Both the position numbers and the translations under genes were made by a program. DNA of 64,000 nt from Pseudogymnoascus verrucosus (taxonomy: Eukaryota), in the NCBI GenBank assembly GCA_001662655.1, contig KV460206.1. One strand, given 5' to 3'. Below are positions 3,837 to 10,590 of this stretch, in pieces. The notes under the pieces were generated by a model that saw nothing but the letters and a program-made list of their open reading frames with translations, had not been told where the DNA came from and searched no databases. How positions within the stretch are numbered: the first letter of the stretch is position 1; each line of letters begins with the position of its first letter.

Positions 3837-6800
3837 TGTGACGACTTTGATCCTGTGGGAGTCTAGGCGTTAGAGTGATGAGATTTGGGAGCCTTTCTGT
3901 TGTATTCGGTGTATATAGAATAAATAATATTGACACGAGTAGTAGGGATATAAGGCACCTCTCTTCTTTCATCCGAACGGCAGTGCTAGCGTCCCTCCAC
4001 AATTGGGAGCTCCAGACCCTCGTCCTCTATAATTTGTAAGCTCTCAACGCATATACCCCCCAACCCTAAATAGCCATTGGGCATCGTCGAAAAGCCTCAA
4101 TGCGAGCCGAATCGGGGTATTCATAAATTATCCGGTCTTTTTTCATCTGATCTTCGGGATGCTTGATCGCTCCCATGGTTTGTGCTTTCTACCCCTCCTG
4201 TTGCCTCATCTTATTATAACACGGAGACACGGGTCACACACAGTACAGTGCTATAATAAAATGCCAATTCTAACCCCTCCTTTACAACAGCTAGCTCTTT
4301 GAGTACATTCGCAGGCAAGTACCTCCAACAGGCCACCCATCCACGACCAGTTTGAGGAGACGCCTTGGCTTTTCTCGGGTCGTGCGCAGTCCGGACGTGC
4401 TGCTATTCTTGCGCGCAATGGGTGTCGTCGTCCTGTATCTGATGTCGCCGTTGGCTTGGAGGCGTTTGCAGATCAAGCTTGGATGTGGTCCTTCATCTAT
4501 CATACCCCCCATCATCCCTCCACCCCTCCTCCACCACCACCAACAAAGACCTTTTTTTGTCGTCATCAGCATGGGGCCATCATTCCACCTCGGTCTCTAA
4601 GCCTCCAATACGGAGGTAAGGTTTGCGTACCATGCTGGCCCTTGTCGCATCACCCTGTCACCCACATACACCGCTCAAACATGGGCTCGCTCGATCTGAG
4701 ACGTCCCTCATTTTAGCCTCCTTTCTTGCCGTTCGGGGCAGGTTGCAGGCGCCACAGGTCACAATCCGTTGTGGATTTCTCCATGGAACAAGCTGAGCTG
4801 CAACATCCATGTCTAGACCGCCCAAACCGTACGGCATGAATCCCTTCGGCACAGTTCCGGGGGCTTATGTATGGGACTGGCGGTGGGGTTGATATCCTAT
4901 ACCGTTTTCCCCCTTGTGCAACTCGCCGACACGACGCAAACGCCGCAAGAAGGCTAGGCCAACCACATTACAATACGTTCGAATTGTCTTTGAATTGTCA
5001 TTACGACCGACAACAATCCAGCCTCCCGTGTCACAATGCCCTTCTTCGGCATGCAGGAATCCATCCCGAACGTCTTCCGCGCGACATCTAATAGCGGGTC
5101 TATCCCATGGTGAAGTACCATATGCCCTGTCCAAGTCCGTGCGCTGATTGGATTCGTCTGATTTTATACCTCACCAAGAAGCGCTCACTATGCTATCAAT
5201 GCATTGTTGGCCGCCAATACTTATAGCTTCAAACCATTGTGGTCGAGGAAAAGGTGCCTTTTGAGGCCCAGAACACACCTACTAGAGAGTCTCAGACGTC
5301 GGCCGGCGGCTTAGAGGTGGTATCAAACTCGGACTGTCGATTATCGTCTTAGAAAATCTTCCGAGGTATCATTGAAGCCGCACACCGCCAAATGTAATAT
5401 CCCGTCGCATCAAATTCCAGATCAAGCAAACTTTTAATAGAGTCATGCGTAATTGGAGGCGTTGATCATCTCTGGCCGACTTTGCAAACGGTTACCTTGC
5501 TTGGCGTGGGTTCCTGCTTGGAAAAGGCTCCCAACTCGACATGGAGCCATATTGAGGCGGCTCATATCGTGGCATCGGAACCTGTTCCTCGGATTTTCCG
5601 GGGCTCTTGGAATTTGCCCTGTCGGTAGCTGAGTACTGCAAGTCATGGATCCAAAGCGGACTCGCGCCTCGCGGCCCAGGGAGAGGCACGCGCATTGATG
5701 CAAGTCAATGCACGCAATTCAGATCTTGCCTGGATTGAAGGCCCCTGACCTTGCCTACCTTGCAGGCCAGACCGCCAGTTCTCTCCTCCAAGCGCCCAAA
5801 GTGGAATCCTAAAGCCCCAGAACTCGTGCCTGGGGTAAGCTACTCCACCCGAACAATTCTATTGTAACTATCCTATACAGTGTCAAAATACGAATGCTCC
5901 ACCCACCATGCGTACGTACTGATACTACAAGATCCCTGACGCTACCATGCACTACTATGCTAGAGTGCAGTAACGCGATATATCCATCTAGGAATACGCA
6001 CAGACGCCCGCCGCTTTCCCCAATCTTAAAGAAGACACTCATGAGGTCGCAGCTGTGTCGTGGGAGAGCATCCGTATTCCTTAGAAGGAGATTTTATTCT
6101 CCGAGCCCTGTTGCAACTACCACCAAGGGCCCCTGGAGGGTTCGTCCCAACCATTCTCAGCCACCACTTCGTGAGCCCTATGCGCTGCCGAGGGCGTTCT
6201 GCCACCAAAATTACAAGGTAGCTGGGGTACAACACCTGCACAGCTGGCCATTTTTGGAGTATAGATGGACTTGTTCATGCACGAATTCGTGGCATGATGC
6301 TCCGTAAGTCACCACTCTACCCTTTCCCCTACGCCCGCACCAACGTCGGTCATCCCTGCCCACATGCCCCTCCATATCTGATCAGCGCTACTCTATATGC
6401 ACTGTGCATCTTCCCGGACATCTCCCCTCAGACCCATTGTGATCCATGTTACCGCCGCCTGAGATCGTGGATTTCGATCTACCTTCTGATGCCACTGGTG
6501 GTCCTCTTTTCCTTCCTGTCTCATCTTATTGGTCCAGCATTACATCTTGACACTGCCAATCATGCTATCAGCAAATTAACCTAGGCGAGCTCCCCCGCCG
6601 TCCTGGGAGCTTGCTAACATAAAGTCATAGCCTCCTTCAAGTACTAGAGAACTGCCGTTGAATTTATCCCCCTCTACCCCAACCTGTCATTCTATTCTTC
6701 CAGAGATAGGAACCCTGACCCAGCCGGTTTTGTCCTTTACTGTCGCTACCCAGGCAAAGTTTAGCACGACTCATCAAGCTTTGGCCTCCAATTCGTCTCC

Positions 6801-6915
6801 ACGGCGCCGTCGATAAGAGAGCAGGCTGAATTATAGCAACATTTCCGGATACGGGTATTCAGAAGACGTGGCAGGAACGTCAGCCGTGACGGCTCTCGCC
6901 ATCAGAACCGTCAAG

Positions 6916-8076
6916 GTGGATATCTCCCACCTTCTCGGGGCCTCGGACTCGAATGAGCCCCCTCCTCCAGCCAGGCCGGCGACCACGAGCCCGACTTCTC
7001 TGCCAGCAATAACAACGGTTGAAAGCGTTCATCCATATTCAACAGCACAAACCAGTGGCGCTGGAGGGAAACGCAGCATGCCTGCACATCCGTCAGAGAC
7101 GCCAGCTAAGAAGCAAAGCAAGTGGTCGCCGGAAGAAGACGCCCTGATTATTGACCTGAGAGGAGGTGGCATGAAATGGGAAGATATATCAAAGCGTTTA
7201 CCAGGGCGAAGTGCTATAAGTTGCAGGTTGCACTATCAAAATTACCTCGAGAGGAGAAGTGAGTGGGATGAGGAGCGGAAAAATAAGTTGGCGAGACTTT
7301 ACGAGAGGTATGTACATGACCTCCACATTCCTGGGACTTGCCAGATTGTCATAATTGTGATCCTGGGATACAAGCTATGAGCTTCACCCCACTCCCCCCC
7401 CCCCAGCCTCCGAGCACACAGCTGATGACTTTACTTTAGGTTTAAACCAGAAATGTGGGCCAAGGTCGCCGAAGAGATGGGCGTTCCATGGCGGGCAGCG
7501 GAGGCCATGCATTGGCAGCTTGGAGAGGCCGACATGGCACGCCGCGCAGGCGTTGTCCCATTCTCACTTTCAAGCGCTCCCGTCGACACCCCCGCCCATG
7601 GGCACGCGAGACCACTATCATCACGCGGCCACTCGCACTCACAATCCCTCTCATCCCCAACTGCATCTACGATGGGCAGTTCAGTACCCTCTTCCCGATA
7701 TTATCGTGAGGGACCCGCTACACGTTCGATAGCTGCACGGCGGCAGAGCATGCCGAGAGGTGGGTTGTCCACTTCCCCATCAGATGGGTACATATATGGC
7801 GGAATCGGAATGGGGCAGGGCATGGGGATGCCAATGACGGGACCCCCGCCCATGCTGCCCAGCGTAGCAGAGATGACAACAGGAATGAGCCCATACAGCA
7901 CACCAGCATACTCAGTATCAGCATCCATGGCTGGCGGACAACCACGTTCTAGCCCGGGCTCTACTTTGCCCTCCATAGGCTATGCTTTACCTCCAAATTT
8001 ACCACCGATGCCAGAAGGAAAGAGTCGCAGCCCTGACCCAGGTCAAGGGGGAACTAGAAGACGGCAGGACCGATAG
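6916..8076 (+). CDS. Myb/SANT DNA-binding transcription factor; exons 6916 (putative GUG; first in-frame AUG 7078)-7307, 7440-8076
   Basis: Myb repeat KWSPEEDALIIDLRGGGMKWEDISKRLPGRSAISCRLHYQNYL, followed by a second repeat (WDEERKNKLARLYER|FKPEMWAKVAEEMGVPWRAAEAMHWQL). Intron 7308-7439 GTATGT..GCTGAT..TAG. The start codon is uncertain. Confidence 0.88.
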
Positions 8077-8769
8077 ACACAGAAGAACGCAAACACAATT
8101 CACTAATACAGCTAAGCGCACTACATGGGAGGATCAGAATATCGCACCGCTGTGTGCGACTTGACTACGATTGAAAAAAATGATGCATGGGTTGGTTTGG
8201 CGCAAAATGCATAGCGTGGCCTGGGGAAATGAATAGAAGACGACTTGATGACAACTTTGGATGGACTTTGGTGGACACGGAGATTTAACATGGAGATGCT
8301 TCTGATTCCTTCGATTCTTTTACTTCTTTTTATCCTTCTTCTGGCAAGATTGGACTTTTTATTTTATTTTTTACTTCTATTCCTTTTTTGTCTATTCACC
8401 ACACTTGGCAATAATGTATTACTAGATTATCGTTATTTCATAGAATGACTCAATATAGAGCCATGTTCCTTCAAACCTAGCCCTACAGTCGCTGACAGCA
8501 TCCATACCATCCCCAGTGCCCGATGGGTTTTGAGCAAGAGGCACCCAATGCCTGGTGTGTGAATGTAGCCTTGGCTTGGCACACATTTGACGCACATTCC
8601 TGTGCAAACTGTTTCATACCGGTGACGAAGCACAGGTGACGCCTTGGACACGTGGCGGTCGCCTTGTCCAACACTATAGTATAATGCGATATGAATTATA
8701 TAGCATAGGGCTATACCCGCTGACTCGAGGCCAGAATCTCTCGTGGACGGTTCTTTCCGCATAAGATTC

Positions 8770-9489
8770 TCAGGTAGGTGCGCTGTTTGGTGTCGCAATT
8801 GCCCACCAGTTGTCCTTCTCATAACCAGATTTAACGACCTGTCCTCCAGCCGAACGGATGTTTTCTTCAAGCTCGCCCGACTTATATAAGTGGTAATACC
8901 TCTGATACGTCGTTTCTTTGGGCTCGGAAACTTCTCCATCTGGAAGCTGCTGCTTCCCCGTCTTCATCACCCAAGGCACCATAACATCCTGTTCGTGGCC
9001 TTCATCCCATCCTCTCCTGCTCGTCTTCTGCTCCAGTGCCCAGACGTAGATTAGTGCCTGGCCCCCAGCCTTTAAACACTCTAGGATTGCGCCAATGGCC
9101 GCTGTCCGCCTCTCGGGGGTCGACAGGTGGTGCACTACGGCAATGCTAATCGCAAAGTCAAAGCGTCCAGCGCCCGCACCACCGCCATGTGGCAAGGAAA
9201 GGTTATCTGCCACGACGGCAGAATGTGGCTGGTGCTGGGCCGCGATCTTGGCCAGGTTGGTAGAGCGATCGCTGGCAACTATGAAGACGTCTTGGTTGAC
9301 TGTCAGGTATTTGCCGTTGCCGCATCCGACATCCAGTCCCACGGACCCAGCCTCAAGACCGAGCAGAAATTCATTGACGATGGGCCATGGCTTGTAGCGA
9401 GTTTGCGAGAAGTGGCTTGCGATTTGCTCATACACCTCGTGAACATGCTGCTCCTCATAGGCCTCGGGTTTGAGGGTTGGCTCCGCCAT
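8770..9489 (-). CDS. TRM9: tRNA (carboxymethyluridine-34) methyltransferase Trm9
   Basis: Motifs EEQHVHEVYEQIASHFSQTRYKPWP, LDVGCGNGKY, DFAISIAVVHHLST, YVWALEQ, RYYHLY and YEKDNW. Single exon, 239 aa. Confidence 0.95.
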   Translation of the reverse strand: MAEPTLKPEAYEEQHVHEVYEQIASHFSQTRYKPWPIVNEFLLGLEAGSVGLDVGCGNGKYLTVNQDVFIVASDRSTNLAKIAAQHQPHSAVVADNLSLPHGGGAGAGRFDFAISIAVVHHLSTPERRTAAIGAILECLKAGGQALIYVWALEQKTSRRGWDEGHEQDVMVPWVMKTGKQQLPDGEVSEPKETTYQRYYHLYKSGELEENIRSAGGQVVKSGYEKDNWWAIATPNSAPT

Positions 9490-10590
9490 TTCGGTTTGGA
9501 AAAGGCTGACGTTATATCAAGGTAGCGGCAGGGTGAGACATGGCACACTCGCTGTATATAAAAAGTACTTTGTGAGATGGTGTCTCTGTGGTTTGGTGGG
9601 GGAATTTGTGTTTTCAAATTCCGCGTTTCGTGATATGTGAGCGCAATCGCTCCGTCGTTTAGCACGTGACTTTTCTCCAATTGAGCGATAAGTACTGCAG
9701 GATTAATGTCACACCGCCTGCTGGATAGAGTTTAGTGGGCAACCCGACCGCGTAAAAGTTTTGGTGGGAAGCTGTGTGGGGAAAGGTCGGTTCAAACATT
9801 GGAGGGCTATCGCCACGACTTTTCTGCGAGCGCTTCACCGTTGAGCGTCCTGTATCGCCTCAATAATTTGCTGAGCGTTTGAGCATCGTGAGAACTCTAT
9901 CGCATCATTATTCTGGAGCGACGCGCCTGATCCGACCACCGCAAAACTCCCGGGGCGCATGTTCTCGCTTGTACTCGCTCTTTCCATCTACCCCAAACGA
10001 TAATCGCAGAATCTTCGAAGAAAGCCTCGAGCCGAGAATATTTCTCATATTTCACCTGAAATATATGCTACATACTACTATACGTATATACGAACAACTC
10101 CCGAAAGACCACACCTTCGTTTTGCCCGTCTCGATGTTTATTGAAGCACTTTGCGCTGGAAGACTCAATCGCTGGTGTCTTAACCTCCTCCAAATATTCA
10201 ATAAAGGCTCAGGCGACCACCAGAGACTGTATTGAGCGGGCTAGTGCAAAGGCTGCCCGTTGGTGCTTTATTATTGCATTGAGCGTTGCTATTGTTCGCC
10301 TATCGAATTCTATTATCGGTGGGAAGATTCCCATTGTCGCTAGATAGCTCCATTGGCGACTGGCATTTTATTCTTGGATAAAGATCACAAGGATAAAGAT
10401 CAAGAGCGATAATATGAACTAAAGAGGTGCGTATATATATGAGATCCTCTTATGGACTCGCCACTTCTTCCTTTCCGACTTTCTCACCTTCAAACTTCCG
10501 TTGGCTCATACAATATCAGCTTCTGAAATTCCAACAAAAGCAAGACGAGTTTGAACTACAACAAAATCCTTCCTCAAAAAATACATTGCT

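Follow-up and report, generated by a model that had tools for sequence, protein, structure and literature searches.

A conserved GUG codon as the probable translation start of a full-length Myb-like transcription factor in Pseudogymnoascus verrucosus

Where does translation of a Myb-like transcription factor begin if its protein conservation extends upstream of the first in-frame AUG? This question is raised by a locus of Pseudogymnoascus verrucosus that lies in a 64,000-nucleotide (nt) stretch of contig KV460206.1 (assembly GCA_001662655.1), hereafter the window, to which all coordinates refer. The first-pass annotation of the window had proposed that a GUG at 6916 initiates a long form of the factor that gene predictors would miss, and the public model VE01_00482 is indeed a 288-residue protein identical to the window protein translated from the AUG at 7078. 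The comparison of orthologues described here points to 6916 as a conserved GUG start codon of the full-length form, a reading to which we assign a probability of roughly 0.8; the annotated protein, which starts at the later AUG, most likely lacks a conserved head of 54 residues.

The Myb frame is open from 6817, directly after a TAA at 6814-6816, and the GTG at 6916-6918 lies in this frame 33 codons past the TAA, in the context ACCGTCAAG GTG G, which provides A at -3 and G at +4. The residues encoded after it are D-I-S-H-L-L-G, as had been described. The earliest in-frame ATG from 6817 onward is the one at 7078-7080 (CGCAGC ATG C, with A at -3), and the intervening extension (6916-7077) has the proposed length of 54 codons; with two coding exons, the first of which ends at 7307, translation from 6916 gives 342 residues vs 288 from ATG 7078. 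The only ATG in any frame at 6563-7077 is that at 6953, in frame +1 and with C at -3, and the absence of AUG claimed for 6648-6915 holds for a longer stretch, 6565-6952. Thus, the frame at 6817-7077 stays open with no in-frame ATG, as expected of a non-AUG extension, and an upstream AUG-initiated reading is excluded without splicing. There are nine further in-frame near-cognate codons at 6817-6915 (AGG 6823, CTG 6826, ATT 6841, GTG 6868, ACG 6877, GTG 6886, ACG 6889, ATC 6901, and AAG 6913), so that 6916 stands out only once orthologues are compared, and not from the window sequence by itself.

A single scan of metagenome contigs provided 80 orthologous loci, of which eight are on contigs that end before the motif, leaving 72 informative ones. 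The 69 anchored loci and the window comprise 56 distinct sequences, which were grouped into 40 clusters at 85% nucleotide identity; this codon census covers classes other than Dothideomycetes, Pezizomycetes, and Orbiliomycetes. The codon preceding D-I is GTG in 69 of the 72 informative loci, and ATG (L027), CTG (L029), and TTA (L080) in one locus each. Counted by cluster, it is GTG in 39 of 40 and CTG in the remaining one, with no instance of GTA, GTC, or GTT, i.e., valine is encoded by GTG in 39 out of 39 cases. All 40 clusters have A at -3 and G at +4, and 39 have GATATC immediately after the codon (Asp is GAT in 39/39, Ile is ATC in 40/40), while third-codon positions vary freely from codon 4 on. 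For comparison, GTG makes up 45 of the 127 other valine codons of the same open reading frames (ORFs). In the Myb domain of the same clusters, 44 degenerate columns with invariant amino acids have the commonest codon at a median share of 0.57 and at most 0.88; for the 20 four- or six-fold degenerate columns among them, these values are 0.405 and 0.60. In conserved Asp and Ile columns, the commonest codon accounts for 57–62% and 62–75%, respectively. As judged by these controls, the GTG is far more conserved than expected by chance. A valine codon that undergoes no synonymous change and shifts only to ATG or CTG is the pattern predicted for a start codon and not for an ordinary residue. Among annotated proteins, those of Erysiphe and Blumeria have leucine at the GUG position. 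The alignment of orthologues that the first-pass annotation had suggested as a check came out in its favor: the near-cognate is kept, DI[SA]xLLK..DSxES is conserved downstream of it, and in-frame stops or frame shifts occur just upstream.

The extension is also conserved as protein. A search with the translation of 6916-7305 against longer proteins found 660 relatives, and the 24 proteins read among the 120 listed, which represent Leotiomycetes, Sordariomycetes, and Eurotiomycetes, can be aligned along the entire extension; 12 further proteins that were read include lichen-forming fungi and other classes. Common to all 24 is V-D-I-[SA]-x-L-L-K..D-S-x-E-S, followed by a variable linker rich in Ser, Thr, and Pro and then by ...KRSMPxHxxESPAKKQSKW. 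Protein conservation starts exactly at V-D-I, and annotated sequence upstream of the valine is alike in close relatives only. Between the motif and the Myb domain, none of the 72 informative loci has an interrupted frame, even though this distance ranges from 85 to 199 codons. Taken together, the orthologues combine maintenance of the frame with free synonymous variation, as expected of translated sequence.

Upstream of the GTG, conservation has a different character. Nucleotide conservation is high over the 30–40 nt that precede the GTG, and the frame relation of this stretch to the GTG differs between clades. For instance, compared with Helotiales-like loci, the window has its TGACGG (6887-6892) one base closer to the GTG; in those loci, the TGA of this hexamer forms an in-frame stop. 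An element found in shifting frames, and with an in-frame TGA in one group, is not conserved for coding. An in-frame stop lies 5–14 codons upstream with no in-frame ATG in between in 17 of the 40 clusters, six of which also lack an intervening near-cognate, and in 26 of the 37 clusters whose upstream sequence is long enough, the frame contains no ATG as far back as the closest stop. The single ATG-bearing locus, L027, bears on the role of this element. Its coding sequence (CDS) is 88–89% identical to those of L003, L009, and L013, but its leader (-60 to -1) is only 63–65% identical; GTG pairs of like CDS identity have leaders that are about 93% identical, and even for pairs with 67–72% CDS identity the leaders are 78–87% identical. 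L027 has also lost its upstream AUG (uAUG), and its GATATC is changed to GATATA. The decay of the leader in this one lineage suggests that the GUG is the reason why the leader is constrained. Overall, the comparison of orthologues shows that the GUG, its extended context, and the coding capacity of the extension are under selection.

The features of the locus, including those of its 5' untranslated region (5'-UTR), are as follows; RNA contigs, such as those of run X8, come from a close relative of the window organism.

6304-6630, plus strand: 5'-UTR intron of 327 nt with a GTAAGT donor, a CTAAC branch-like site at 6614, and a TAG acceptor (X8 contig)
6631-6915, plus strand: second leader exon, the AUG-free portion of the 5' leader (ATG absent from all three frames; covered by joint-free contigs)
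6814-6816, plus strand: in-frame TAA that closes the Myb frame upstream (read in the window; spliced out in no RNA contig of the relative)
6876-6915, plus strand: leader element conserved at the nucleotide level and ending in the start context (alignment A2)
6916-6918, plus strand: GUG, the proposed start codon of the long isoform, which would be read as Met (orthologue census)
6916-7077, plus strand: N-terminal extension of 54 codons with the conserved motif (M/V)DISHLLGASDSNE followed by the Ser/Thr/Pro-rich linker (protein alignments A1 and A3)
6919-6924, plus strand: GATATC (Asp-Ile) with fixed synonymous sites, directly 3' of the proposed start (cluster codon counts)
6953-7012, plus strand: AUG in frame +1, preceded by C at -3, and the ORF of 19 codons that it opens within the extension (read in the window; the stop ends at 7012)
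7078-7080, plus strand: in-frame AUG, the annotated start of the short, 288-residue isoform (identity to VE01_00482)
7120-7248, plus strand: Myb-like DNA-binding repeat (Pfam PF00249, residues 69-111 of the translation from 6916)
7308-7439, plus strand: coding intron of 132 nt, GTATGT...TAG (skipped in the relative's contigs of all four runs)
7440-8076, plus strand: second coding exon through the TAG stop (read in the window)

In addition, an open frame of 248 codons (8770-9516) with a ...VGLDVGCGNGKYL... motif is located on the minus strand and converges on the 3' end of the Myb gene; by its sequence, it looks like a methyltransferase dependent on S-adenosylmethionine.

Transcription across the GUG was followed in contigs of four runs from four studies of the close relative, which are 90–95% identical to the window. 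The contigs of all four runs skip 7308-7439 (GT..AG), thus they represent spliced RNA, and the exon joining restores ...LARLYER|FKPEMW..., which matches the orthologues. Contigs without joints reach 7305 from 6365 (X1, X2, and X12) or from 6631 (X8). The first-pass annotation had named a transcript start downstream of 6916 as an observation that would speak against the GUG; in the close relative, spliced contigs instead extend from 6631, and some from 6365, to 7305. In contig record 7 of run X8, the 30 letters before 6631 are exactly those of 6274-6303 in the window, and this joint defines the 5'-UTR intron. The X1, X2, and X12 contigs run through part of that intron, which suggests its retention or an alternative transcript. 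The contig piece corresponding to 6365-7305 carries 39 substitutions; among the 38 listed, none falls at 6747-6936 and twelve fall at 6937-7077. In the relative, the transcript covers the GUG and no intron brings an upstream ATG exon to it.

These contigs bear directly on the weakest of the alternative explanations, in which the valine is an internal residue and an upstream AUG exon is spliced to an acceptor just before 6916, such as the CAG ending at 6905; several public gene models imply such an exon. Many annotated orthologues do carry extra N-terminal sequence joined to ...TVKVDIS, and a YAG is present 9–15 nt upstream of the GTG in many loci; however, the explanation is barely credible, since no joint is found at 6631-7305 in the relative's four runs although the coding intron and (in X8) the 5'-UTR intron are spliced, genes that are nearly identical have been modeled with different N-terminal additions, the candidate acceptor lies 9, 10, or 15 nt from the GTG depending on the clade and phase is therefore not kept, an internal valine should vary synonymously yet shows no variation in 39 of 39 clusters, and conservation ahead of the putative acceptor exceeds that of coding sequence, which would be odd for an intron.

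Public gene models of the locus differ widely in their N-termini. Models of Pseudogymnoascus proteins that are at least 90% identical range from 286 to 579 residues, those of the Neurospora crassa locus are 438, 504, and 520 residues long, and Colletotrichum models vary from 311 to 566 residues, with several flagged as partial. The models of Candelaria, Pycnora, and Xylona begin at the internal Met of VDISLLL-M-PKE.... Four proteins that begin with 'MDIS...' or 'MDIA...' (P0006, P0019, P0160, and P0192) were considered as ATG cases and ruled out: they originate from the gene callers of the Logan, ENA, and JGI metagenome sets and lack eukaryotic annotation, thus they provide no evidence for ATG. 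Prokaryotic-type gene callers accept GTG and start exactly at this codon, unlike the pipelines used for eukaryotic annotation. The contig behind P0006 lacks introns and is therefore a transcript. In another model, P0008 of Peltigera leucophlebia, several Myb units are arranged in tandem, and AK-M-D-[LP]-S-x-I-M-N stands before every one of them; these heads resemble AK-V-D-I-S-L-L-L with Met replacing Val, and by sequence P0008 may represent a local paralogue expansion with an ATG start.

The AUG at 7078 (KRS-M) is ATG in 26 of the 28 Leotiomycete- and Sordariomycete-like clusters, always with a purine at -3 (26/26), and the serine codon preceding it is AGC or AGT in 19 out of 19 cases, vs 32% AGY among other serine codons. 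The Eurotiomycete-like clusters have no ATG at the equivalent position (0/12) and encode Gln, Ala, Ser, or Leu there; without a downstream Met, the protein of these orthologues must start at or before the GUG. The two isoforms envisaged for the window, with and without the extension, receive indirect support from the conservation of AUG 7078 and of the purine at -3. Thus, both starts are apparently under context selection in the window's class, in agreement with two isoforms without proving them. A +1-frame ATG like that at 6953 occurs at +31 or +37 in 29 of the 40 clusters and arises from an AAT-GAG or GAT-GAG codon pair. In loci L001-L078, it falls in a DSNES/QDEE motif, and in Leotiomycete- and Sordariomycete-like loci it is found in the loop of a small invariant inverted repeat, GACUC/GAGUC. 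Two paired synonymous sites of this repeat (GAC and GAG) never vary; the third position of the loop serine does.

Upstream of the GUG, a uAUG is located at -33 to -63 in 34 of the 38 informative clusters, with a pyrimidine at -3 in all 34. In most Helotiales-like loci, it opens a five-codon upstream ORF (uORF), MIRQx* (e.g., at -45 to -27 in L003, L008, L022, and L028), and in most Sordariomycete-like loci a six-codon uORF, Mxx(L/P)(P/A)(F/L)* (e.g., at -47 to -26 in L036, L050, and L072). The uORF stop in these loci ends 24–29 nt before the GTG, a nearly constant spacing. The equivalent ATG of Eurotiomycete-like loci is in frame and is not followed by a stop (MIALQN..PPAK-V-DISLLLK). The window, L001, L002, and L021 lack the uAUG, which has been lost in the window's clade; a conserved uORF of the GCN4/cpc-1 type is accordingly absent from the window, whose leader exon 1 holds only unrelated uAUGs. 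Several short uORFs are present in that exon, for example MMLPSFKY, which crosses the splice junction and has a stop ending at 6647.

The leader element contains inverted repeats, CGTCA (6878-6882), TGACGG (6887-6892), and CCGTCA (6908-6913), and these three could fold as two mutually exclusive hairpins. In Helotiales-like loci, the first repeat arm is inside the uORF, and the middle arm holds the uORF stop codon. The predicted fold of 6860-6990 in the window is not exceptional (z = -1.38). RNAalifold analysis of 22 Leotiomycete-like sequences returned the TGACGG/CCGTCA pairing and the small GACUC/GAGUC hairpin at +30, with compensatory changes in one of 14 pairs; the 3' arm variants CCGCCA and CCTTCA in these sequences are uncompensated. 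Structure prediction for 17 Sordariomycete-like sequences gave only 10 weak pairs, and an Rfam search of 5500-8500 had no match at E <= 1.

These observations can be combined into a putative course of events. After removal of the 5'-UTR intron, 43S complexes would scan the AUG-free leader at 6631-6915 and meet the GUG in an optimal, nucleotide-fixed context, with A at -3 and G at +4 in ...ACCGTCAAG GUG GAUAUC. A fraction of them would initiate with initiator Met-tRNA and produce the 342-residue protein M-D-I-S-H-L-L, with an acidic-hydrophobic head and a disordered linker. Complexes that pass the GUG would start at the weak +1-frame AUG 6953, with its 19-codon ORF, or reach AUG 7078 with its A at -3, where initiation would give the annotated 288-residue form that keeps the Myb domain and is devoid of the head. 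Ribosomal initiation at the GUG with initiator tRNA is inferred, as are Met as the first residue, the ratio of the two forms, and the role of the head; by the same reasoning, leaky scanning would feed AUG 7078, and the form ratio would respond to how stringently start codons are chosen, as had been anticipated. A broader proposal, which we put forward tentatively and regard as doubtful, is that a three-start switch has been kept across Pezizomycotina, consisting of a weak uAUG with a uORF stop at a near-constant 24–27 nt ahead of the GUG, an optimal GUG, and, in Leotiomycetes and Sordariomycetes, a strong downstream AUG; the leader repeats may set GUG use, and the form ratio would report stringency or eIF2 status. 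In such a switch, the head-bearing and head-less Myb forms could act as activator and competitor, respectively.

Several points weigh against the GUG start. Ten Eurotiomycete-like clusters have an in-frame ATG 11–21 codons upstream, and L049 has one 47 codons upstream, so that the GUG of this group may be a second start or an internal Val; the GTG is still invariant in 12 out of 12 Eurotiomycete-like clusters despite the upstream in-frame ATG. In the Pseudogymnoascus clade, the frame is open for 33–88 codons upstream and contains other in-frame near-cognates, and longer minor forms are possible there. L080 has TTA, which is not a near-cognate, before D-F-A-A-L-L-K in a drifted motif (ALDFAALLKASGSHEAP) and no in-frame ATG across 87 codons upstream; it may be a lineage that abandoned the long form, or a paralogue. 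The clusters share descent, hence binomial figures overstate their independence, and the codon-column control meets this kinship problem only empirically. Finally, contigs cannot show transcript starts, and a second, shorter transcript starting downstream of 6916 is possible.

Of the two alternatives that survive better than a spliced upstream exon, the first holds that only AUG 7078 is used in P. verrucosus, the region around 6916 serving as a regulatory element that acts in the leader at the RNA level, with the open frame left over as a relic. It agrees with the RefSeq model of the identical P. verrucosus gene, which starts at 7078, with the strong and conserved context of this AUG, with the nucleotide-level conservation of the leader element upstream of the GTG, and with the substitutions in the linker relative to the close relative, which are mostly at first codon positions. 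We nevertheless consider it very unlikely, given that the motif VDISHLLGASDSNE is kept as protein in all Pseudogymnoascus-like sequences seen, that the frame stays open at variable in-frame lengths in 72 of 72 informative loci, that third positions downstream vary while amino acids stay, the pattern of translated sequence, and that Eurotiomycete-like orthologues have no downstream Met.

The second alternative places the main start of the Pseudogymnoascus long form at an upstream near-cognate, namely CTG 6826, GTG 6868, or GTG 6886, which would provide a longer head. The frame is open upstream for 33 codons in the window and L001, 88 in L002, and 75 in L021; near-cognates are shared at -16 (GTG/CTG), -10 (GTG/TTG), and -30 (CTG), and GTG 6868 has G at both -3 and +4. 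However, in Helotiales-like loci a TGA closes the leader element, which is also out of register there with the frame of the window, the 6916 codon is the only one conserved across classes, and the open frame is seen in four related loci only, where it may be due to chance. We thus regard an upstream near-cognate as a highly improbable main start and retain the GUG at 6916 as that of the full-length form.

The protein that would be extended in this way is known from its Myb-like repeat. In Pfam, the translation of 6916-7305 matches PF00249 with 45.0 bits (cut-off 24.4) and PF13921 with 31.3 bits (cut-off 22.9); the 288-residue form scores 54.1 and 37.9 bits, respectively. An AlphaFold2 model of the long-form orthologue P0006, computed with 29 aligned rows, is confident solely for the Myb domain (predicted local distance difference test, pLDDT, of 90–95); the head has a pLDDT of about 40–50, consistent with a disordered extension, does not dock, and offers no functional clue. 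A look-alike search of the ESM Atlas with the 54-residue head gave no usable hit; it was the one probe of the suggestion in the first-pass annotation that many fungal transcription factors may begin with M-[DS]-I-x-x-L-L. The head is presumably a regulatory motif carried on a disordered linker. The factor has orthologues across Pezizomycotina, among them P. verrucosus VE01_00482, Botrytis cinerea BCIN_02g02300, N. crassa XP_956912, and Aspergillus niger An07g10190. A tie to a studied Myb protein (MybA, MylA, or FlbD) was not established; the available passages of the MylA paper (PMC13630534) name Afu2g02350 and give no sequence. Five locus tags or accessions searched in the literature gave one match, in the available part of a transcription-factor catalogue (PMC8637145).

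Our literature search, which lay outside subscription journals and the supplementary tables of ribosome-profiling studies, found no report of a non-AUG start for this Myb gene. The gene would belong to the known class with conserved non-AUG N-terminal extensions; its comparative signature is unusually clean, and its three-start arrangement is possibly new. The metazoan gene eIF4G2/DAP5/NAT1 has an mRNA that is translated from a conserved GUG and, to our knowledge, has no alternative form from a downstream AUG. Its GUG resembles that of the Myb gene in being long conserved, together with flanking nucleotides beyond -3 and +4; however, the context is different and the two genes are not homologous. 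A 'NAT1 motif' is described, in the part of the source available to us, as enhancing non-AUG starts (PMC13754004).

The closest fungal parallel is cpc-1 of N. crassa, for which conserved N-terminal extensions initiated at near-cognates behind uORFs were described (Ivanov et al., 2017; PMC5487733); the available passages of that paper cover cpc-1 only, with no occurrence of 'Myb'. In both cases, judging by those passages, a Pezizomycotina transcription factor has a frame and in-frame near-cognates conserved upstream of the main AUG, short uORFs are present in most orthologue leaders, and long and short forms are expected from one mRNA. Whereas cpc-1 has several near-cognates in an open leader of more than 700 nt, the Myb gene has a single GUG, fixed in several classes, at the edge of conservation. 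The families also differ, cpc-1 being a bZIP factor and the present one a Myb factor known here from sequence alone, and the window's clade has lost the conserved uORF. The same source mentions the LAP/LIP-type isoform pairs of the alpha and beta C/EBP proteins that result from alternative starts. As far as they are described there, they share with the Myb gene one mRNA, a long form with an N-terminal regulatory head, a short DNA-binding form, and a ratio set by start choice; the start codons and protein families differ, and opposing activities of the Myb forms would be pure inference.

Near-cognate starts are also described, in the passages available, for Cryptococcus ArgRS and LeuRS (e.g., cccaccAUU and gccaccACG; PMC7049704), for a dual-localised fungal 6-phosphogluconate dehydrogenase (PMC7214817), and for Podospora IDI-4 with its CUG start (PMC5487733). 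As in the dual-localised fungal enzymes of these sources, a non-AUG start in a strong context, cgucaccGUG in many Myb orthologues, would produce an N-terminal extension. In contrast to their organelle-targeting signals, the Myb head consists of a short acidic-hydrophobic motif, belongs to a DNA-binding protein of nuclear type, and is far more widely conserved.

If ribosomes start at the GUG, the N-terminus of nearly every public model of this gene is wrong, being truncated, extended by invented upstream exons, or partial, and constructs for tagging, deletion, or complementation derived from such models would leave out or break up the motif that is best conserved outside the DNA-binding domain. 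The locus offers a compact system for asking which sequence beyond -3 and +4 makes a GUG efficient, and it permits a test of the priming of near-cognate initiation by short uORFs, which the available part of PMC5487733 asks about in the case of cpc-1. A valine codon that shows no synonymous variation at the edge of conservation can serve as a search criterion for further cases. If true, this would make the Myb gene one of the clearest fungal examples, on comparative grounds, of an obligate near-cognate start.

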